Source: an uncultured Actinomycetota bacterium
GTDB taxonomy: Bacteria; Actinomycetota; Actinomycetes; Streptosporangiales; Streptosporangiaceae
NCBI GenBank assembly: GCA_963727015.1
Contig: CAVSEV010000012.1
Coordinates: forward strand, 214,131-278,130
Length of the DNA: 64,000 bases
Reading direction: 5' to 3'
A model generated the notes under the pieces. It made no database searches. It was given only the letters and a program-made list of their open reading frames with translations, and was not told where the DNA came from. Positions 2,820-16,624 of the stretch are shown here, piece after piece (position 1 is the first letter of the stretch; every line of letters begins with the position of its first letter). The position numbers were made by a program, and so were the translations under genes.

Positions 2820-3235
2820 GGCTGCTCGGTGGCCGGCTGCCGCTTCAGCTCGAGCACACGGGCGAGCAGGCCGTTGACGAAGGCGGACGACTCCTCGGTG
2901 GAAAGGTCTCCCGCGAGCAGCACGGCCTCGCTGATCGCGACGCCGTCGGGTACGGAGTCGGCATACAGCAGCTCGAACACGCCAATCCGCAGGATGTTCC
3001 TGTCGACCGCGGGCATCCGGTCGAGCGGCCAGCCCGCCGAATAGCCGGACAGCAGCGCGTCGATTCGGTCTCTATGCGCTTGCACTCCGCGTACCAGTTC
3101 CGCGGCGTATTCCGGAACTGGCGGGCTGGCCTGCGCCGTCCGCTCGGCGAGCACGTCGGTTACCGGCGCCCCACGCAGTTCCGCCTCGAACAGCACGTCA
3201 AGCGCGCGCTTACGGGCCTTGCTTCGCGCAGCCAC
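2813..3235 (-). CDS. nusB: Transcription antitermination factor NusB
   Basis: 140 aa, ARSKARKRALDVLFEAELRG...AVDRNILRIGVFELLY. Lies immediately downstream of efp, which is the conserved efp-nusB pair. Confidence 0.9.
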   Translation of the reverse strand: MAARSKARKRALDVLFEAELRGAPVTDVLAERTAQASPPVPEYAAELVRGVQAHRDRIDALLSGYSAGWPLDRMPAVDRNILRIGVFELLYADSVPDGVAISEAVLLAGDLSTEESSAFVNGLLARVLELKRQPATEQPQ

Positions 3236-3869: not shown

Positions 3870-5030
3870 TCACAAAACGAGCAGCTCCTTGGTGGTTGTG
3901 GTGAGGAGTTCTCCAGGTCCCCGTGAGCGCACCACCAGGGTGTCCTCGATCCGGACACCGCCCTTGCCTGGCAGGTAGATTCCTGGCTCAACAGTGATGG
4001 GAACTCGGTCCCCGAGTGTACCGGTCCCTTCATGGTGCAGCAGCGGCGCCTCGTGGATCTCCAAGCCGATTCCGTGGCCGAGCCCGTGGCCGAAATGCTC
4101 GCCGTAACCTGCCGCCGCGATCAGATCGCGGGCTGCCGCGTCCACCTGCGCGACGGGTGCCCCTGGCCGCGCCGCGTCCACACCGGCCCGCTGCGCCGCC
4201 GCCACGACCCGGTAGACGTCCCGCTGCCAGCCCGCGGGCTCGCCGACCGCGACGGTCCTGGTCAGGTCCGCGTGGTAGCCGCGGTAGCAGGCACCGAGGT
4301 CCATCGTGACCAGGTCGCCGAGCTGCAGGGCCCGGCTGGTGGGCACGTGATGCGGGATGGCGCCGTTTGGCCCGCTGGCGACGATCGTGGCGAAGCCGGG
4401 CTTGTCGGCACCCAGCTCCACCATCCGCTGTTCGAGCGCGATCGCGAGCTGCTTTTCTGTGCGACCGGGACGGATTGACGGCAGCGTCTCGTCGAGCGCC
4501 TGGCAGGTGAGCCTGCAGGCGACAGCGATCACGGTGATTTCTTCCTCGTCTTTGACCACGCGCAGCTGTTCCACCGCCCTGCCGAGGGGTGCGAGCTCGA
4601 TCTCCGGTGTGCCCGCGGCCAGCGCCGCGTGCTGCTCCACCGTCATCGCGTGCGCCTCGAAGAGCACCCGGCGCAGTCCGCGGGAAGCCGCGCGTGCGGC
4701 CAAACCGGCGGCGACGTTCCTGGTGGTGAGGAGTTCCATGTCGGGGCAGTCACGCTCGGCCGCGAGGGCGTACCTGCTGTCGGTGGCGAGCACCGCGGCC
4801 GCTGCGGGCGGTCCTGCGTTTGCCGCGGTCACGAGCAGGGCCGCGTTGGAACTGGCGAGGCCCGTCAGGTAGCGGACATTGGCCAGGTGGGTGATGAGCG
4901 CGGCACCGGCGCCCGCTTTCGCGACCTTGGCGGCAAGGAGTCCCCTGCGTGCGGCATGAGCGTCCGGCATGCCCCGACTGTACGCACCCGGCGCCTCGGC
5001 CACATCAGTGCCGCGGATCGCACGTGCCAT
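3870..5030 (-). CDS. Xaa-Pro aminopeptidase (M24B family, PepP/PepQ-like)
   Basis: 386 aa. The metal-binding motifs of M24 peptidases are present ([36 protein letters not shown]...GVRIED). Position upstream of efp matches the conserved aroB-aroQ-pepQ-efp-nusB arrangement. True start may be the internal [10 protein letters not shown]. Confidence 0.8.
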
Positions 5031-5107
5031 AGCCCACCCGATCCGCGGCGCTGACAGCTCTCCACAGGTAGCTGCCAGTTTGCACGATAGCTGTCAGGCA
5101 GCAACTG

Positions 5108-6157
5108 TCAGGTAGCGAGGTCGCGGATCCGCTCGATCAGGCGCACCCGCTCGGCGTGGCTTGGCGCGACCGGGGTGACGTTGAGGGTGGTGACGCCGGC
5201 CTGTTTCAGCGCGGCGAGCCGCTCACGCAGGTAGGGCTCCGGCCCCACCAGCGAGGTACCCGCGAGCAGTTCACGCGGCACGGCAGCCGCAGCCTCGTCC
5301 TTCTTGCCGTCCAGGTAAAGGTCCTGAATATCCTTGGCCTGCGCCTCGAAGCCATACCTGCAGGCGAGGTCGTTGTAGAAGTTGCGGCCCCGCGCGCCCA
5401 TGCCGCCGATGTAGAGGGCAAGCACCGGGCGGAAGAAGTCCAGCACGCCCTCGGTGTCGTCGCCGATCGCCAGTGGCGCCTGGGCGATGACATCGAGCGG
5501 CCCCAGCCGGGCGTCACGCAAGGCCTGACCAGCCGCGAGCGCCTCTGCCCATACGGCGGATGCCTTCTCCGGCAGGAAAAAGATCGGTTCCCAGCCTTCC
5601 GCGAGTTCAGCGGTCATCGTCACGTTCTTGGGCCCGATCGCGGCCACGACGATCGGGATGCGCTCACGCACCGGATGGTTGATCAGCTTGAGCGGCTTGC
5701 CGAGCCCGGTTCCCGCGTCAGGCGGCAACGGGATCGTGTAGTAACGCCCCTCATGAGTGAGCCGCTCGCGGCGCCACACCTTGCGGCAGATCTCGATGAT
5801 CTCCCTGGTGCGCCCGAGCGGCGCGTCGTAACGGACACCGTGCCAGCCCTCGATCACTTGCGGTCCTGAAGCGCCGATACCGAGCACGAACCTGCCGCCC
5901 GAGACGTAGTCCAGGCCGGCCGCCGTCATCGCGGTCAGGGTCGGCGTCCTCGAATAAAGCTGCAGGATCCCCGACGCGAGCTGCAGGCGCTCGGTCTTCG
6001 CCGCGAGGTAGCCGAGCTGGCTCACCGCATCGAAGCTGTACGCCTCGGGCACGAACACGATCTCCAGGCCCGCCTTCTCGAAATCGGCAAGCTCGCCGGC
6101 GGTCTCGGCGAAACCACCCGCATAGCCCAGGGGCATCCCGATTCGCATGCGCCGCAC
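5108..6157 (-). CDS. LLM-class (luciferase-like) F420/flavin-dependent oxidoreductase
   Basis: 349 aa. MRIGMPLGY...LEIVFVPEAYSFDAVSQLGYLAAKTERLQLASGI...GGRFVLGIGASGPQVIEGWHG is the typical LLM TIM-barrel signature. Confidence 0.7.
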   Translation of the reverse strand: MRRMRIGMPLGYAGGFAETAGELADFEKAGLEIVFVPEAYSFDAVSQLGYLAAKTERLQLASGILQLYSRTPTLTAMTAAGLDYVSGGRFVLGIGASGPQVIEGWHGVRYDAPLGRTREIIEICRKVWRRERLTHEGRYYTIPLPPDAGTGLGKPLKLINHPVRERIPIVVAAIGPKNVTMTAELAEGWEPIFFLPEKASAVWAEALAAGQALRDARLGPLDVIAQAPLAIGDDTEGVLDFFRPVLALYIGGMGARGRNFYNDLACRYGFEAQAKDIQDLYLDGKKDEAAAAVPRELLAGTSLVGPEPYLRERLAALKQAGVTTLNVTPVAPSHAERVRLIERIRDLAT

Positions 6158-7770: not shown

Positions 7771-8417
7771 CCGCGCGGCCCATTCGATCTATCCCCCACG
7801 GACGCAGCGGCGATCTTCGCTGCGATCTCGTCCGCGACTTCCTCCGGCGCGTAGTCGTCCGTCTCCACGATCCAGGTGGCGAGGCTCTGGTAGACGGGCA
7901 GTCGCTCCGCGAGCAGTGCCTTGAGCTGCGCACGCGGGTTGCCGATCAGCAGCGGCCTCGGCCGGTCAAGCCCGTTGCGATGGGCCAGCGCGGGCAGGCC
8001 GGTCTCGAGGTAGGCGACGGTCCGGCCGCCGAGCAGGCGCTGGGCGCGCGGGTCAAGCACCGCGCCGCCGCCGAGTGCGAGCACGCCACGATGCTCCCGC
8101 AGCGCCGCAGCCACTGCCTGCCGCTCAAGATCGCGGAAAGCGGGCTCGCCGTCCTGCACGAATATGTCGGCAACGGGCTTGCCGGCGGCCGTTTCCACAT
8201 CGTCGTCCGTGTCGCGAAACGGCACGCCGAGCAGGCTGGCAAGCAGCGAGCCCACGGTGGACTTACCCGCACCTGGCGGGCCGATCAGCACCACCACCGG
8301 CCCGTCGCTGCTCGCCGCGTCGCTGCTGGCCGGGTCACTGCTGGCCGGCCCGCTCTCGGCTGGCCCGCTCTCGGCGCGCCCGCTCTCGGCTGGCCCGCTC
8401 TCGGCTGCCCCACTCAC
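7767..8417 (-). CDS. aroK: Shikimate kinase with a repetitive (AESGP)n/ASSD N-terminal extension
   Basis: [35 protein letters not shown] is the P-loop/shikimate-kinase core. The N-terminal 40 aa are encoded by 15-nt tandem repeats (8330-8420). The true start may lie after the repeats. Confidence 0.85.
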
Positions 8418-8497: not shown

Positions 8498-9712
8498 TCA
8501 TGTTGGCCACCCGGTTGACAGCTGAGACAGCGAGGTCAGGTACCCGCGAAGGTTGCGCGCGGACTCGTCGACCGAGTCACCGCCGAACTTCTCCACGGTG
8601 GCGTCGGCCAGCACCAGCGCAACCATCGACTCCGCGACCACCCCGGCGGCCGGCACCGCCGTGATGTCGCTGCGCTGGTTGATGGCCTTGGCTGGCGCGC
8701 CAGTACGCATGTCGACCGTGTCCAGAGCCCGCGGCACCGTCGAGATCGGCTTCATCGCGGCCCGCACCCTGAGCACCTCGCCAGTGCTGATGCCACCCTC
8801 GATGCCACCGGCCCGGTTGGTCCGCCGCCGGAGCCCGCCAGCTTGCGCGCTGCCGGTTCCGCTCAACTCAATCTCGTCGTGGGCCCGCGATCCACGGCGC
8901 CGCGCGGTCTCGAATCCGTCGCCTATCTCGACGCCCTTGATCGCCTGGATTCCCATCAGCGCCGCGGCCAGCCGCCCATCTAGCCGCCTGTCCCAATGCA
9001 CGTGGCTGCCAAGCCCGGCTGGCAGGCCGTAGCTTACGACCTCAACCACGCCGCCGAGCGTGTCGCCGTCGTTGCGGGCCGCGTCGATCTCGGCGACCAT
9101 CGCAGCGCTCGCCTGCGGATCGGCGCAGCGGACGGGGTCGGCGTCCACCCGCGCCAGGTCCGCAGGCTGCGGGACCAGGCCATCGGGCACCTGCACCGGG
9201 CCGAGCGCCACCACGTGGCTCAATATCTCTATTCCCGACACCTGGCGCAGAAATGCGCGTGCCACCTCGCCGAGCGCGACCCGCGCCGCGGTTTCCCTCG
9301 CGCTTGCCCGCTCCAGAATCGCGCGCGCGTCAGCCTCCCCGTACTTTTGCATGCCGGCCAGGTCGGCGTGGCCTGGCCGCGGCCGCGAGAGCGGCGCGTT
9401 CCTTGCCTGGTCGGCGAGAGCCTCTGGATCGACAGGATCGGCGGACATCACCACTTGCCATTTTGGCCATTCGGTGTTGGCGATCTTGATCGCGACCGGG
9501 CTGCCGAGGGTTCGGCCGTGCCGCACCCCACCGATGATCTCGACCTCGTCCTGCTCGAACTTCATCCGAGCGCCGCGTCCGTAACCGGCCCGCCGGCGCA
9601 TCAATGCAGCGGAGATGTCGCTTGTGCTGGTCAGCACGCCCGCGGGCAGGCCCTCCAGGATCGCAACAAGGGCAGGGCCATGTGACTCCCCCGCGGTCAG
9701 CCAGCGCAACAT
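8498..9712 (-). CDS. aroC: Chorismate synthase
   Basis: 404 aa. [26 protein letters not shown] is the canonical AroC N-terminus. Completes the aroC-aroK-aroB-aroQ order. Confidence 0.9.
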
Positions 9713-10002
9713 GGTGCCGATCCTGCCATGCGCGCGGGCAGAACCGCGTGCCAGGGGCGGCCGCCCAGATCGGTGAACCCGTGATGTGGTTGCCGAGCCG
9801 CGGGTGCCGGGCGGGAGACAAATGGCGGTTGGCGCCCTTCCGCCGCGAATAGAAGCGAAAAAAAAGAAACTTCTCGGGCGGCATTTGACTGTCGCTTTGC
9901 TCCGAGCAGGGTATCGCTAAGAAACGGGGGGCGAAGTGGATCTCCATATGCGGTTCGCCCGCTTTGCAATTACACAACGGCACATAAAGTGTCATCGGGG
10001 GA

Positions 10003-10626
10003 ATGTACATGAAGACCATTCGGCACGTTCTGCCGGGCGCCGCGCTCGGCGCGGCCCTGCTTGGCCTGAGCACACCCAGCATCGCGCTTGCCACGTCCGG
10101 CGGCGCCTATCCAGCGTCGGTCACCAGGGGCAGCGTGGTCCCTGTCAGCGGCTCGGCCCTTGGCTCGGCCAACGCGACAGGCGACGCCGCCCAGTCGCGG
10201 ACCATAACGCTCGGGAGAACTGACGGGCCGCCTCCCAAGCATCGCGGGCATGGCGGGCATCCGGGAGGGCCACCCAAGCCCAAGCCACCCAAGCCGCCCA
10301 AGCCACCGAAGCCGCCCAAGCCCAAGCCGCCCAAGCCACCCACGCCACCCAAGCCCAAGCCGCCCAAGCCACCCACACCACCGAAGCCGCCCACACCACC
10401 GAAGCCAACCCACACGCCTCCGCCACCTCCTCCGCCTCCGCCACCGGGCCCTAAGCCACCGGTGCCGCCCCCGCCGCACCACCTGCCACCTGGCGGGCCC
10501 GCGACGGGTGACGGCACGACCTCAAGCGGCTCGGACAGCCCGCTCGTCGCTGGCGGCATCGCGATCGCCGGTCTCGGCGGCCTGGCCGGGATCGTCGCGG
10601 CGCGACGTCGGCGCGCGGGAGCCTGA
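10003..10626 (+). CDS. Secreted proline-rich (PKPP-repeat) surface protein with a C-terminal sorting-signal-like anchor (copy 1)
   Basis: 207 aa. Signal peptide MYMKTIRHVLPGAALGAALLGLSTPSIALA, then (PKPPKPP)n and polyP, then HHLPPGGPATGDG..., a hydrophobic segment GGIAIAGLGGLAGIVAA and an RRRR tail. This is the architecture of a cell-wall sorting signal. RBS GGGGGAATGTAtATG. Confidence 0.6.
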   Translation: MYMKTIRHVLPGAALGAALLGLSTPSIALATSGGAYPASVTRGSVVPVSGSALGSANATGDAAQSRTITLGRTDGPPPKHRGHGGHPGGPPKPKPPKPPKPPKPPKPKPPKPPTPPKPKPPKPPTPPKPPTPPKPTHTPPPPPPPPPPGPKPPVPPPPHHLPPGGPATGDGTTSSGSDSPLVAGGIAIAGLGGLAGIVAARRRRAGA

Positions 10627-10631
10627 AGCTG

Positions 10632-10823
10632 ATGCAGCGCGGCCAGGGCGGCGGCTTCCTGCTGGAGGCCGCCGCCCTTGCCTTCTCGCGGCCGTGGTGG
10701 CGGTCGCCATCATCGGCTGGCAACCGCGCTGCGCACCGCCCCTTGCACCTGCGCAACGCGTTTGCCAATCCTGCCATGTGCGCGGGGACTACCTGCGCCA
10801 GGGCAGCGCGCGCGCCCAAATGA
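10632..10823 (+). pseudogene. Truncated/frameshifted remnant of a class F sortase (5' about 150 nt only)
   Basis: MQRGQGGGFLLEAAALA... is about 85% nt-identical to the 5' end of the intact sortase at 11696. A 1-nt indel shifts the frame (the alternative frame reads LLAAVVAVAIIGWQP). No catalytic region follows. Instead the upstream region of copy 2 begins at about 10843. Confidence 0.45.
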
Positions 10824-11000
10824 CGGGCGGCGCCCTTCCATAGCGAACAAAGAAGCGAAAAAGAAGAAATCTCGAATGGATTTTCACCGTGGCTTTGCTC
10901 TTGGCGGGGTATCGCTAACGACTGGGGCGCGAAGTGGATCGCCATTTGCGATTCGTCCGCTTTGCAATTAAACAACGGCACATAAAGTGTCATCGGGGGA

Positions 11001-11696
11001 ATGTATATGAAGACCATTCGATACGTCCTGCCGGGCGCCGCGCTAGGTGCGGTCCTGCTCGGCCTTAGCACACCCAGCGTCGCGCTTGCCATGTCCGCAG
11101 GCGCCCATCCAGCGTCGGCCAGCCAGGGCGACCCAGCCCCTAGCGCCAGCGCAACCCCTAGCGGAAGCGCAACCCCTAGCGGAAGCACAACCCCTAGCGG
11201 AAGCACAACCCCTGACGGCAGCGGCACGGTCCCCGGCGGCAGCGGCACGGTCCCCGGCGGCAGCGCCGCGGCACCCGCTGTGGCCAATGCGACAGGCAAC
11301 AACGCCCAGCCGCCGACAGCGCCTAACCCGAACGGCGTACAACCTAGTGGACAGGGTGGGCCTGGCGGAGGCGGGCCACCCCCACCGCCGCCTCCGCCAC
11401 CAGGCCCGAAGCCATCTCCGCCACCTCCAACATCCCCGCCGTCGCCATCTCCGCCACCTCCGCCGACACCACCGGCCCCGCCGACTCCGATGCCACCACC
11501 ACCACCACCTGGCCCGAAGCCGCCTCCGCCAGCTCCGCCGCACCACCTGCCACCGGGCGGACCCGCGACGGGTGACGGGACGACCTCGAGCGGCACGGAC
11601 AGCCCGCTCGTCGCTGGCGGCATCGCCATCGCCGGTCTCGGCGGCCTGGCCGGGATCGTCGCGGCGCGACGACGGCGCGCGGGAGCCCGACGCTGA
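11001..11696 (+). CDS. Secreted proline-rich surface protein with a C-terminal sorting-signal-like anchor (copy 2, paralog of 10003..10626)
   Basis: 231 aa. Same signal peptide and same C-terminal [51 protein letters not shown]. The middle is a different low-complexity block (TPSGS repeats, polyP). The stop overlaps the sortase start (TGATG). Confidence 0.6.
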   Translation: MYMKTIRYVLPGAALGAVLLGLSTPSVALAMSAGAHPASASQGDPAPSASATPSGSATPSGSTTPSGSTTPDGSGTVPGGSGTVPGGSAAAPAVANATGNNAQPPTAPNPNGVQPSGQGGPGGGGPPPPPPPPPGPKPSPPPPTSPPSPSPPPPPTPPAPPTPMPPPPPPGPKPPPPAPPHHLPPGGPATGDGTTSSGTDSPLVAGGIAIAGLGGLAGIVAARRRRAGARR

Positions 11697-12379
11697 TGCG
11701 GCGCGGCCAGGGCGGCGGCTTCCTGCTGGAGGCCGCCGCCCTTGCCCTCCTCGCGGCCGGTGTGGCGATCGCCATCACCGGCTGGCAACCGCGCTACGCA
11801 CCGCCCCCGGCACCTCCCACGTCCGCGGCACTCGCGGCGCCGGGCAGCCCCGTCGGCGCGCCTGCTGGATCGGGCCGGCGAGCGTTGCCGCCAGCGGTAC
11901 CTCGCCCGCTGCCCTATTCACGGCCTGTGCACGTGGACATCCCTGCGATCGGCGTGCATGCCAGGATCATCAGGCTTGGCCAGAACGCGGACGGGTCCTT
12001 GCAGGTGCCCGCGCTGTCCACGCCCTTCCTTGCCGGCTGGTTCGACCAGGGACCCGCGCCCGGGCAACGCGGCGCGGCGGTACTGCTCGGTCACGTGGAC
12101 TCCGCCTGGACCGGGCCGGCTGTCTTCTACCGGCTTGGCGACTTGCGGCCGGGTGAGTCCGTCAGCGTGACGCGGGCCGACCGCAGCGTGGCCGTGTTCC
12201 GCATCTACTCGGTGGCCCTGTATCCCAAGGACGCCTTCCCCTCGCGCCGCGTCTACGGGCACACCCACCATCCTGAGCTGCGGCTGATTACCTGCGGTGG
12301 CCCGTTCGACGAAAGCGCGGGCAGCTATCTGGACAACACCGTGGTGTTCGCCAGCCTGATCTCGGCGGCCCCGGCCTGA
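11696..12379 (+). CDS. Class F sortase (membrane-anchored transpeptidase)
   Basis: 227 aa. N-terminal TM LLEAAALALLAAGVAIAI, catalytic His in VLLGHVDS and Cys in the TLxTC-type motif LRLITCGGPF, as in SrtF. Translationally coupled to the upstream substrate gene. Confidence 0.75.
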   Translation: MRRGQGGGFLLEAAALALLAAGVAIAITGWQPRYAPPPAPPTSAALAAPGSPVGAPAGSGRRALPPAVPRPLPYSRPVHVDIPAIGVHARIIRLGQNADGSLQVPALSTPFLAGWFDQGPAPGQRGAAVLLGHVDSAWTGPAVFYRLGDLRPGESVSVTRADRSVAVFRIYSVALYPKDAFPSRRVYGHTHHPELRLITCGGPFDESAGSYLDNTVVFASLISAAPA

Positions 12380-12397
12380 CCACGCCCGCACGGGCCG

Positions 12398-13192
12398 TCA
12401 GCCCGGCGGCCCGGGCTCGACAGCGATCTCGATCCCGCGCCTGAACCTGCCTGCCAGGCTTACCATGATCGCTGTGGCCGCGCGGCGCGCCGCCACTTCG
12501 GCCTGCGACGACGACGCCAAGCCCGCAGCCGCTCCGCCCGGGTGGGCAGTAAGCACAAGCCGCACGGTCAGGTCGGTCCCGCAGCTCCCACCGGCCCCAG
12601 GGGTTTCGGTAGTTCCTGGGGTCCCCACGCTACCGTTCACCAGCACAGCCGCCGCGATGTCGGGATCTTCGGCGACAACGGCATCCACCGCGGCGCGAAC
12701 GTCCGGGTCATCCGCTGGCATCGGTGCGGGCCTGGCGCCGGCGAGCGCGGCAAGCCTGGCGCCCTCCACCACAAGTGGCACGGGTCCCGCTACATCGACG
12801 ACCACGGCGTGCGCGGCCTCGGCCGCCGCAGCCTGGCACACCTGCTCAGTTCCCGCGGGCAGTGGCCGAGCGTCAGGCCGCCACCTGCTCAGCGCATCCA
12901 GGCTGGTGAACGCGACGATCGCGCGGCGGCCATCGTGCCCGGTGAGCATTGGTACCGTCATGTCGCTTGTCTTCTCGCGGCGCAGCGCCCGGCCACCCGT
13001 GGCCGTCGCGTCCTCGGTCGCTGTGACGGCGGCGACCACAGGGACGAGAAGCCGGGCCCGTGTCAGCGCCGTCAGCACGGCGTACTCACTTTCCTGCCCG
13101 GCCGCATAGGCGGCGAGTGCGGCCGCGAGCCTCGGTTCCGCGGCGCCATTGTCGTCGCGGAACCGCTGATCCGGCGTGATCAGGCCTGGCAC
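12398..13192 (-). CDS. SseB-family-like protein (hypothetical)
   Basis: 264 aa, Ala-rich. Matching on SEYAVLTALTRARLLVPVV...MLTGHDGRRAIVAFTSLDAL...AVLVNG resembles actinobacterial SseB-family proteins. Assignment tentative. Confidence 0.45.
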   Translation of the reverse strand: MPGLITPDQRFRDDNGAAEPRLAAALAAYAAGQESEYAVLTALTRARLLVPVVAAVTATEDATATGGRALRREKTSDMTVPMLTGHDGRRAIVAFTSLDALSRWRPDARPLPAGTEQVCQAAAAEAAHAVVVDVAGPVPLVVEGARLAALAGARPAPMPADDPDVRAAVDAVVAEDPDIAAAVLVNGSVGTPGTTETPGAGGSCGTDLTVRLVLTAHPGGAAAGLASSSQAEVAARRAATAIMVSLAGRFRRGIEIAVEPGPPG

Positions 13193-13927: not shown

Positions 13928-16624
13928 TTGCGTTACCGGCTGATGGCGACCTACCGCGGAGTCTCCTATGAGGCTGCCATGGGTCCCACCGATGCCGACG
14001 TGGTCTTGTTCGCGTCGAGCCCGCCACACGCGGACTTCGGCTTCCAGGCCGCAGCCGGCTACTGGCGCAAGCGGATCAGCCGTGAGGCACTCGACGCGCT
14101 GTGGGAATCGCGGCCCGTCGGCCGGTACAGATCCGAACCATGTCTCGTGCTCGAGGAGATCGGGGACCGGCTGCACATCGCCCACCTCGGGCACGACGCC
14201 TACCGTGCGGAACGGCTCGGCTACTGGCAGGTCGACCGCGGTGCATACGAGGTGGTCGTGCCGCACGATGAAGTAACCGAACTCACGGATCAGCGGTTGG
14301 ACTATCCGGCGCGCAGGAACCTGGGTGAGGGGATACCCGATGCGTCGAAGTGCGATGAGCCGGCGGCCAGCCTTGAGGCCCCGCCCGCAGCCCAGGCGCC
14401 GTCCGCGGCAGCGCACGACCGGTCCTGGCGTGAGTTCGAGGCGCCGGGCCACGGCCCCGACCGCGGCAGCACGGAGCCGGGCCGCAACGACGGCTGGAAC
14501 GGATTCTCCGCACCGGGCGGCACGAGGGGCGTACAGGGCAGAGGGCGGCGCGGCGTCAGCGGCGCGCACGGCGGCGGCGGGCGCGGCGTCACCGCGCGCG
14601 ACTGGGACGATGCTGGGACGCTGAACGGAGCCGGTTACACGGGCCATCCGCCTTTCGCAAATGGTACCCATGCGCTGCCGCAACCCTCGCGGGGCGGCCA
14701 AGGGACACCGGCCGACGTGGATGGCACGGGGAATTCGAGCACGGGGAATTCGAGCACACTGAATTCGAGAACAGTGAATTCGAGCACAGTGAATTCGAGC
14801 ACGGGGGATTCACGCGCAGGGGATCCAAGGGCAGCGGATCCGACGGCAGCGGATCCGGCGGCAGGGGGCCCGAAGGCAGCGGATCCAAGAGCACGGCGCC
14901 GGAGAGCAGCGGGTCCGGCGGCTGGGGGACCGAAGGCAGGCGGACGAAGGGCAGGGGGACCGAGCGCAGGGGGACCGAGCGCAGGGGGACCGAGCGCAGG
15001 GGGACCGAGCGCAGGGAGACCGAGCCCAGCCGGTTCGAGCGCTGGGACACGCCAGCGCGGCACAGACCAGCCCGGCACAGACCAGCTCGGCACAGACCAG
15101 CCCGGCACAGACCAGCCCGGCACAGACCACAGCACAGACCAGCCCGGCACAGACCACGGCACAGACCAGCCCGGCACAGACCAGCCCGGCACAGACCAGC
15201 CCGGCACAGACCAGCCCGGCACAGACCAGCCCGGCACAGACCAGCCCGGCACAGACCAGCCCGGTCAGAGCCGTCGCAACGCGGACGCAGGCGATGGTGC
15301 TGGCCGCGCCGCAGGGGAGAGCGTCGGCCCGGGCGGGATCGGGGAAGGCAGCAGCGCGCGCGGCCGGAGGGTCGCCGCAGGCCATCGCGCGGCGTGGGAA
15401 AGCGCGGACGAGCGGGCACTGGATGGCGCGGGCGAGCCGGGATCGGGCGAAGGTGCCCGGCAGGCGATGCCTGCGCACAGCGAAGCGGGACCCGGCGCGG
15501 GCGCACGCAGGCCTGGCGGTGGCGCGCACAGGTCCGGTTCCCCGCGGCCCGATGCCCTGGCCGGTCCCACGTCCCAGGAGGAGTTGTCAGGGACCGGCTG
15601 GACGGACGCGCAGGAAACCCGCGCCCAACCACGGCTCCCGAAGCGGCGGCGGGCCGAATCCACGCCGCTGCAGCCGCGGGTCCCTGACTCGGCAGGTTCG
15701 CCGCACGAGCCCGTGACCTTGCCACTGTCGCAACCGCCCGCGGTGGCCGAGGCGGCGGCACCGCCCGCCGCACTCCCATCGGAAGCATCCCCGCAAGGCC
15801 CGCCGCTGTCTGCGCCGTGGGAAGCGCCGCAGTTGGGGCCTCGGGTGGCGGCATCGTCCGCCGACCAGCCCCCGCCGACCGCCGCAGAGCCCTCGGCGCC
15901 TGAGCGGCCATCCACCGCCCGGCCATCGCGCGCCGAGCTAGCCACGGCCCGGCCATCCACCGCCCGGCCATCGCCCGCCGAGCTAGCCACGGCTCGGCCA
16001 TCCCCCGCCGAGCTATCCGCGGCCCGGCCATCCGCGGCCGAGCCATCCGCCGGATCGCTGGCTCCCCCGACGCCGTTCGTGCCGCGGCGACCCGCACAGC
16101 GCGAAGCCGGGCTGCCCACGTCAGGGCAGATCTCCGTCGACCCCTCGTCTGGGCCTGCCTCGTCTGGGCCTGCCTCATCTGGGCCTGCCTCATCTGGGCC
16201 TGCCTCATCTGGGCCTGCCTCATCTGGGCCTGCCTCATCTGGGCCTGCCTCATCTGGGCCTGCCTCATCTGGGCCGCTGCCTCGATACTCGCCAGGGCGC
16301 GACCTCGCCGGACCCACTGGCACGGACGTACCTGGCGCGCCTGGTGGCCGGCGCAGGCGGACCCGGGTGGAGACTCGCTGGGTCTTCAAGGACCTCATTG
16401 ACATGGCCGCGATACCGCACGGCTCCTACGCCGTGGACGAGGAGATAGACGGTGCGCTGTGCCTGATCAAGACCGACGACGGATACGAGGTGTTCATCGC
16501 GACTGATGGCGCCAAACACGAGGTTCGGTTCTTCGACGACGAGGAAGCCGCGTATTTCTATCTGTTCGGCGTGCTTGCCGCGGAGGCGATCCGCGGCGGC
16601 CGGCTGGTGCCGCAGACACAATAA
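13928..16624 (+). CDS. Large hypothetical protein: two globular terminal domains flanking about 600 aa of multiple distinct pentapeptide tandem-repeat arrays
   Basis: 898 aa. N-terminal domain [20 protein letters not shown]...[16 protein letters not shown] and C-terminal domain [75 protein letters not shown] look folded. The middle is arrays of (STGNS/TVNSS), (SAGGP), (GTDQP)x about 14, (ARPS-AEL), (SGPAS)x9, encoded by 15-nt DNA repeats. Confidence 0.5.

Follow-up and report, generated by a model that had tools for sequence, protein, structure and literature searches.

Tandem duplication of a putative substrate and class F sortase module, with decay of one sortase copy and turnover of the substrate middles, in an uncultured actinobacterium

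How do two neighboring genes come to encode proteins with closely related ends and entirely different middles, next to one intact sortase gene and the broken beginning of another? This question is raised by a locus in a 64,000-nucleotide (nt) stretch of DNA from an uncultured soil Actinomycetota bacterium, hereafter the window, whose coordinates are used unless a related locus is named. Four plus-strand features lie there between aroC and an SseB-like gene: substrate gene 1 (10009-10626, 205 aa), a short open reading frame (ORF) with a sortase-like beginning (10632-10823), substrate gene 2 (11007-11696, 229 aa) and a class F sortase gene (11696-12379, 227 aa). We propose, with a probability of about 0.85, that a substrate plus sortase module was duplicated in tandem, that the sortase of the first copy decayed, that both substrates were kept and share the remaining sortase, and that their middles were remodeled.

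The tandem duplication and the first sortase copy

An earlier note on this DNA had described a tandem segmental duplication of a substrate plus class F sortase module and had proposed comparing the region with itself and with related genomes. Self-BLAST of positions 9500-12600, together with a repeat finder, returned three direct-repeat blocks with 79-90% identity: 9715-9767 with 10763-10818 (79%), 9819-10129 with 10817-11128 (84%, E 1e-83) and 10429-10750 with 11493-11815 (90%, E 1e-119). The blocks are collinear, and what they repeat is the DNA upstream of the substrate genes, the sequences for the predicted signal peptide and the C-terminal anchor, and 119-120 nt at the start of the sortase gene, so that the duplication of the sortase start claimed by the note holds at a length shorter than its 150 nt. 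Between the blocks, the sequences of the two substrate genes do not align at all, which agrees with the “completely different” middles of the note; the ends, which it had called identical, are about 85-95% identical. Each unit is made of an AT-rich conserved leader, a gene for a predicted secreted low-complexity protein and the start of a class F sortase gene.

The end of one unit is joined to the start of the other, in the window as in its closest relative. Alignment puts the repeat boundary at 10750/10751, not at 10842/10843 as first noted, and at this point the sortase stub is directly joined to a fragment of aroC: the 9 nt at 10751-10759 (minus strand) align with 9704-9712, the former start codon CAT being now CGC. 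About 20 nt of the aroC 5′ end are kept at the equivalent junction of the relative. Such an aroC remnant at the start of unit 2 implies a local tandem duplication. In its present extent, unit 1 (9704-10750, plus strand) holds the leader, substrate gene 1 and the sortase stub; it starts at or before 9704, in the aroC start region, rather than at 9840 as the note had it, and comparison with the relative’s junction places its left edge originally about 20 nt inside aroC, the first codons of which fall inside the duplicated unit.

Scanning a genome collection with the sortase gave 22 related loci, and scanning metagenomes with the leader motif gave two more; we refer to them by L-numbers. The closest one, L001, comes from a metagenome-assembled genome also annotated as coming from an uncultured Actinomycetota bacterium; at the protein level, its sortase and that of the window share 97% identity, and the DNA identity is 96.5% for aroC, 98.2% for the sortase gene and 95.1% for the SseB-like gene. 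Both units are present in L001 as well, down to the indels specific to each copy. L003 and L024, with a sortase identity of 85%, have one unit at the same site, that is, one substrate gene and one sortase gene between aroC and the SseB-like gene (1120 and 919 nt, respectively, from the aroC start to the sortase start), and the partial locus L002, annotated as Streptosporangiaceae, resembles L024. As a side observation, the L003 sortase (5001-5769) is split across two frames near 5190 (residues 1-65 versus 72-221), which points to a sequencing error in that assembled genome or else to a pseudogene.

The upstream region and leader of substrate 2 (10763-11006, plus strand) carry deletions relative to copy 1 that are common to L001 copy 2: both show the same 75-115-nt gaps, which makes the two second copies orthologous. 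The duplication is, thus, real, local, tandem and older than the split between the window and L001, since both genomes share these gaps and the aroC fragment at copy 2. Synonymous divergence (dS) of the paralogous ends, 0.19-0.39, is comparable to that between the window and L024 (0.23-0.34) and exceeds that between the window and L001 (0.04-0.12). L001 also has a 12-nt tandem array upstream of its copy 1, on the aroC side (2836-2890, GGTCGGGCGCGG, 3.2 copies); its absence from the window explains a 26-nt alignment gap near 9771.

What became of the first sortase is recorded in the stub (10632-10750, plus strand), a 119-nt class F sortase pseudogene covering codons 1 to about 40 and 90% identical to 11696-11815. 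Its match to sortase residues 1-18 lies in a different frame from its match to residues 17-40, with a −1 frameshift near 10680-10685, in line with the frameshifted stub of the earlier note. The copy-1 remnant of L001 is more informative: it runs from sortase nt 1 to about 140, then directly into 44 nt of the sortase 3′ end (L001 3925-3968 with 5620-5662, 86%, E 6e-8) and then into the aroC fragment; its start codon has changed from ATG to CTG, and a CAG codon has become the stop TAG. Compared with it, the stub of the window has a further 72 nt or so missing, the 3′ remnant among them. Because the L001 remnant holds both ends of the gene, the whole sortase must have been duplicated and its interior deleted afterwards; the note was right in reading a deletion. 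Close to the ends of the deletion are two GCGC(C)GGGCAGC motifs, which suggests a loss by slipped mispairing between these direct repeats.

Two other accounts of this architecture have to be weighed. In a region so repetitive and GC-rich, one might suspect an expanded or mis-joined repeat produced by the assembly; the two units, however, diverge at 10-21% of positions and their middles are entirely unlike, a pattern that an assembler error would not yield, and L001, assembled independently, carries both units in the same architecture with orthologous copy-specific features, so that we consider an assembly artefact extremely improbable. The other account is one that we favored at first: the duplicated segment would have ended about 120 nt into the sortase gene, and no copy-1 sortase would ever have been deleted. 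Indeed, homology to the sortase stops at 10750 in the window, and at 10751, the very next position, that to the aroC start sets in, just like a junction made in one step; yet the 44 nt of sortase 3′ end lying between stub and aroC fragment in L001 led us to discard this shorter duplication, to which we now give very little credence.

Returning to the duplication of the whole module, we picture an ancestral locus made of aroC (minus strand), one substrate gene, a class F sortase gene and the SseB-like gene (minus strand). Before the lineages of the window and L001 separated, some 1.6-1.7 kb would have been duplicated in tandem, a stretch reaching from within aroC, about 20 nt past its start, to a point about 20 nt short of the sortase stop codon. 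The upstream sortase copy, being redundant, would then have undergone an internal deletion of about 475 nt, perhaps between the GCGC(C)GGGCAGC repeats, and the remnant would have decayed separately, by a frameshift and the loss of about 72 nt in the window and by start loss and stop gain in L001.

The intact sortase and its two candidate substrates

The remaining sortase is a clear member of class F: it scores 203 bits against NCBIfam NF033748 (cut-off 166) versus just 17-22 bits against the class D and GN models, and it matches Pfam Sortase with an E-value of 1e-22. It has an N-terminal membrane anchor, a His motif (LGHVD) and a Cys motif (LITCGG), and these two motifs, as well as DNTVVFA, align with those of 12 other class F sortases. 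An Asn occupies the usual position of the catalytic Arg (...SYLDNTVVFA, 12320-12350), as it does in all 11 of the other intact aligned sortases, the twelfth, that of L022, being misaligned at this position; such an Arg-to-Asn replacement is a reported trait of actinobacterial class F sortases (PMC6998099). The gene is intact and overlaps substrate gene 2, the TGA stop of the latter (11694-11696) and the ATG of the former (11696-11698) forming TGATG, exactly as the earlier note had it. No record with exactly the sequence of the sortase was found, and a PDB sequence search with it gave no match at E <= 0.01. In its family score, membrane anchor, His and Cys motifs and Asn for Arg, the enzyme resembles the class F sortases of other Actinobacteria, such as SrtF1-4 of Actinoplanes missouriensis and the five of Streptomyces coelicolor; it differs from them in that its gene overlaps a dedicated GPATG substrate gene and adjoins a decayed second copy.

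The substrate ORFs may also start two codons upstream (ATG at 10003 for substrate 1 and at 11001 for substrate 2). Both proteins begin with MKTIR(H/Y)VLPGAALGA(A/V)LLGLSTPS(I/V)ALA, and in MKTIRHVLPGAALGAALLGLSTPSIALA we recognized by eye a putative signal peptide with its basic N-region, hydrophobic core and A-x-A site. In substrate 1, this is followed by a short N-terminal stretch and a middle of PKPP and polyproline, after which come the GPATG sorting signal, a hydrophobic segment and RRRR as the tail; substrate 2 has ends of the same kind around a middle of TPSGS[AT] and GSGTVPG repeats and a proline-rich tract. The C-termini read ...GGPATGDGTTSSG(S/T) followed by 30 further residues (that is, ...HHLPPGGPATGDGTTSSG(S/T)...). 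Both, thus, have the layout of a sorting signal, with a pentapeptide, a hydrophobic segment and a positively charged tail before the stop, and a scan of the 64-kb window found such tails in these two proteins only. The pentapeptide is GPATG and not the canonical LPXTG or LAXTG. The nearest described family is that of the GVDTG sorting domain (NCBIfam GVDTG_CTERM, NF058571, cut-off 29): the C-terminal 42 residues of both substrates cover nearly all of the 44 model positions, but the motif differs (GPATG here, GAATG in L003) and the scores straddle the cut-off, with 29.2 bits for substrate 1, 26.7 bits for substrate 2 and 20.2-28.7 bits for the substrates of the relatives. When the conserved N- and C-terminal ends were combined into an artificial query, a protein search returned nothing at E <= 0.001 among 432 candidates, the family being maybe absent from the database or the query too short or biased, and a literature search on sortase and GVDTG found no papers.

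The assignment of these proteins to the sortase is supported by context in more distant loci. In 11 loci of the Micromonosporaceae type, the protein encoded directly upstream of the class F sortase gene ends in GPATGGGG, a hydrophobic segment and RRRR; sharing both the motif and the gene order, they show that these are older than the low-complexity passengers found in the clade of the window. A Nocardioides locus has GNPDTG instead. Class F sortases are widespread in actinobacteria, while their substrates and role are unknown, and the present locus together with the 11 others offers a testable pairing of enzyme and substrate with a non-LPXTG motif. In those loci (L008-L011, L013-L018 and L022, from Actinoplanes and related Micromonosporaceae), the GPATG gene lies about 300-1000 nt upstream of the sortase match, and its passenger of about 100 residues is non-repetitive and without Pfam match.

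From these features, we expect both substrates to be exported, most likely by the Sec pathway; the remaining sortase would cut both at GPATG and attach them to the cell wall, and at the surface they would form extended, disordered chains rich in Pro and Gly. Both substrate genes are probably functional and served by this one sortase, since their ends are constrained (dN/dS, the ratio of nonsynonymous to synonymous divergence, is 0.15-0.24 in most comparisons of the four copies in the two genomes), while the adjacent stub has collected inactivating lesions. A sortase-anchored protein of comparable description is SspA of Actinoplanes missouriensis, which is predicted to be intrinsically disordered and matters for sporangium strength (PMC13293333); the likeness is one of description, and SspA depends on a class E sortase for its anchoring, not on a class F one.

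Turnover of the substrate middles

Arrays were called by Tandem Repeats Finder. In substrate 1, the in-frame PKPP array (10279-10412, plus strand) is made of a 9-nt unit in 15.4 copies within a 33-nt higher-order unit in 3.1 copies (92% match), followed by polyproline; the heptads that the earlier note saw here are, in fact, these 9-nt units within the higher-order repeat. Substrate 2 has two young in-frame arrays (11137-11265, plus strand), TPSGS[AT] with an 18-nt unit in 4.3 copies (94% match) and GSGTVPG with a 21-nt unit in 2.4 copies (100% match). In every array, the period is divisible by 3.

When the window and L001 are aligned globally, identity is 92-100% per 50-nt bin, except at 10064-10462, the mature part of substrate 1, where it falls to about 50%. 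There, L001 copy 1 has a collagen-like (GKPGxP)n array (18-nt unit, 10.6 copies) replacing the PKPP array and scores 42.6 bits against Pfam Collagen (PF01391, cut-off 27.2); the two substrates of the window gave no match in a Pfam scan and lack the G-X-Y pattern of collagen. L001 copy 2 carries a different 36-nt array at the position of the two arrays of the window. Among the other relatives, L024 has a copy-2-like N-terminal part, one TPSGSA motif and a short G-X-Y tract, and its gene looks closest to the ancestral state; the middle of L003 is (GNGWH)n, and that of L023 is (GKPGHGGNWN)n. Inspection of the codons revealed no frame-shift or reverse-strand relation among the PKPP, collagen-like and GNGWH arrays.

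Wall-anchored collagen-like proteins with repeat numbers varying between strains are known from other bacteria, such as Scl1/Scl2 of Streptococcus pyogenes and also BclA of Bacillus anthracis. L001 copy 1 is likewise a G-X-Y protein, and L024 has a shorter tract of this kind; the proteins of the window differ in having no G-X-Y array, a GPATG instead of an LPXTG anchor and no globular head domain.

Repeat turnover, which the earlier note had put forward, can be followed at TPSGSA, which is present once in L024 and in 4.3 tandem 18-nt copies in copy 2 of the window, so that in-place slippage is directly visible. Would slippage alone account for the differences between the middles, with no foreign alleles involved? 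Besides the TPSGSA case, the young high-identity arrays specific to each allele speak for it, and so does a GHGG landmark common to copy 1 of the window, copy 1 of L001 and L024. However, copy 1 of the window and copy 1 of L001 share just 73% identity in the non-repetitive N-terminal part of their mature region, versus 95-98% in the flanks, with a dN of 0.32 and a dS of 0.37 (27 codons, 7 synonymous differences) against a dS of 0.04-0.12 elsewhere. Slippage alone is, in our opinion, a serious but less probable explanation, and the divergence of this part is suggestive, though only that, of an older copy-1 allele acquired through recombination at the conserved ends. Gene conversion from copy 2 to copy 1 in the window was considered as well: two blocks of copy 1 resemble copy 2 (polyP-GPKPP, 10420-10458 with 11376-11414, 85%; ANATG, 10167-10202 with 11282-11317, 83%), but the C-terminal anchor of copy 1 retains its copy-1-specific sites. 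One may also ask whether copy 1 is simply a decaying pseudogene and copy 2 the sole working substrate. Copy 1 has lost its own sortase, the dN/dS of its mature region is about 0.9, and open frames are easily kept at 70% GC; against this, its frame is intact from signal peptide to anchor in both genomes despite different arrays, whose periods are multiples of 3, its ends are under constraint and its leader is conserved, the adjoining stub being, by contrast, inactivated in both lineages. We, thus, find a pseudogene distinctly unlikely.

Some observations nevertheless weigh against the history that we favor, in which both substrates are kept, share one sortase and have their middles remodeled. 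The dN/dS and dS figures are based on just 27-71 codons. The window cannot date the internal sortase deletion relative to the split from L001, as its own larger deletion spans the region. GPATG is no characterized sortase motif, and substrate 2 lies just below the cut-off of its nearest family. Long open frames arise easily at 70% GC, which makes the intact ORF weak evidence for the function of copy 1. Finally, a quadruple knock-out of the class F sortases of Actinoplanes missouriensis had no visible phenotype, and the physiological role of class F sortases is unknown (PMC13251363), so that the biological role may be subtle.

Under this history, the middles would be nearly unconstrained and remodeled by in-frame slippage of 9-36-nt units, copy 1 having probably also recombined with a divergent allele. 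The earlier note had spoken of surface-protein diversification by duplication and repeat turnover; both processes are found here, and its picture is refined by the GPATG motif, by the corrected boundaries, by the order in which the events took place and by the likely contribution of a replacement of the copy-1 allele. A more far-reaching proposal, which we put forward as tentative and rather unlikely, is that of a dedicated class F sortase system whose GPATG-type substrates form a within-species hypervariable surface layer, with the leader, the signal peptide and the anchor as fixed ends. The type of middle does vary from genome to genome (PKPP, collagen-like, GNGWH or TPSGS), and the exposed middle may be swapped or rebuilt under diversifying selection, for example, by phages or predators. 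If true, this would provide the first concrete substrates and a testable function for class F sortases. One has to keep in mind that duplication, pseudogene decay and repeat slippage are textbook processes and that every component belongs to a known kind; what makes the locus valuable is its well-resolved history and a testable substrate assignment. It is a well-dated example of a redundant enzyme decaying after duplication while both substrates are kept, and of a predicted disordered, wall-anchored protein swapping its whole middle between flanks that are 95-98% identical.

The conserved leader and the surroundings of the locus

A leader of about 125 nt precedes every substrate gene (9885-10008 and 10882-11006 in the window; 3000-3125 and 4115-4242 in L001; 4085-4206 in L003; 10830-10957 in L024). 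It is nearly invariant in seven sequences, including outgroups, and more conserved than the mature parts of the substrates; its GC content is about 50% versus 70% for the window. Upstream of substrate 1 (9885-10008, plus strand), it contains TTGACT and a ribosome-binding GGGGGA, and we consider it a putative promoter region. A scan for sigma-70 promoters and intrinsic terminators returned no sites, and no Rfam family matched positions 9600-12500 at E <= 1; a consensus fold of the leader with 29 predicted pairs showed a single compensatory change (covariation term +0.27), which leaves an RNA structure unsupported.

On the left, the locus is flanked by aroC, encoding chorismate synthase (8498-9712, minus strand; Pfam PF01264, E 4e-116, and NCBIfam aroC), whose position is syntenic in L001, L003 and L024. 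The right flank, outside the duplication, is the SseB-like gene (12398-13192, minus strand; Pfam PF07179, E 2e-27), syntenic in the same three loci and in L002. In-frame 15-nt tandem arrays are common in the vicinity: the N-terminus of a shikimate-kinase-like gene has one of 4.9 copies (8343-8415), and an 898-aa ORF (13928-16624, plus strand) has at least six, at 14724-15264, 15905-16052 and 16143-16275, with, for example, 14.6 copies at 15052-15264 and 8.9 copies (99% match) at 16143-16275. The expansion of coding repeats seems, thus, to be a general habit of the source genome.

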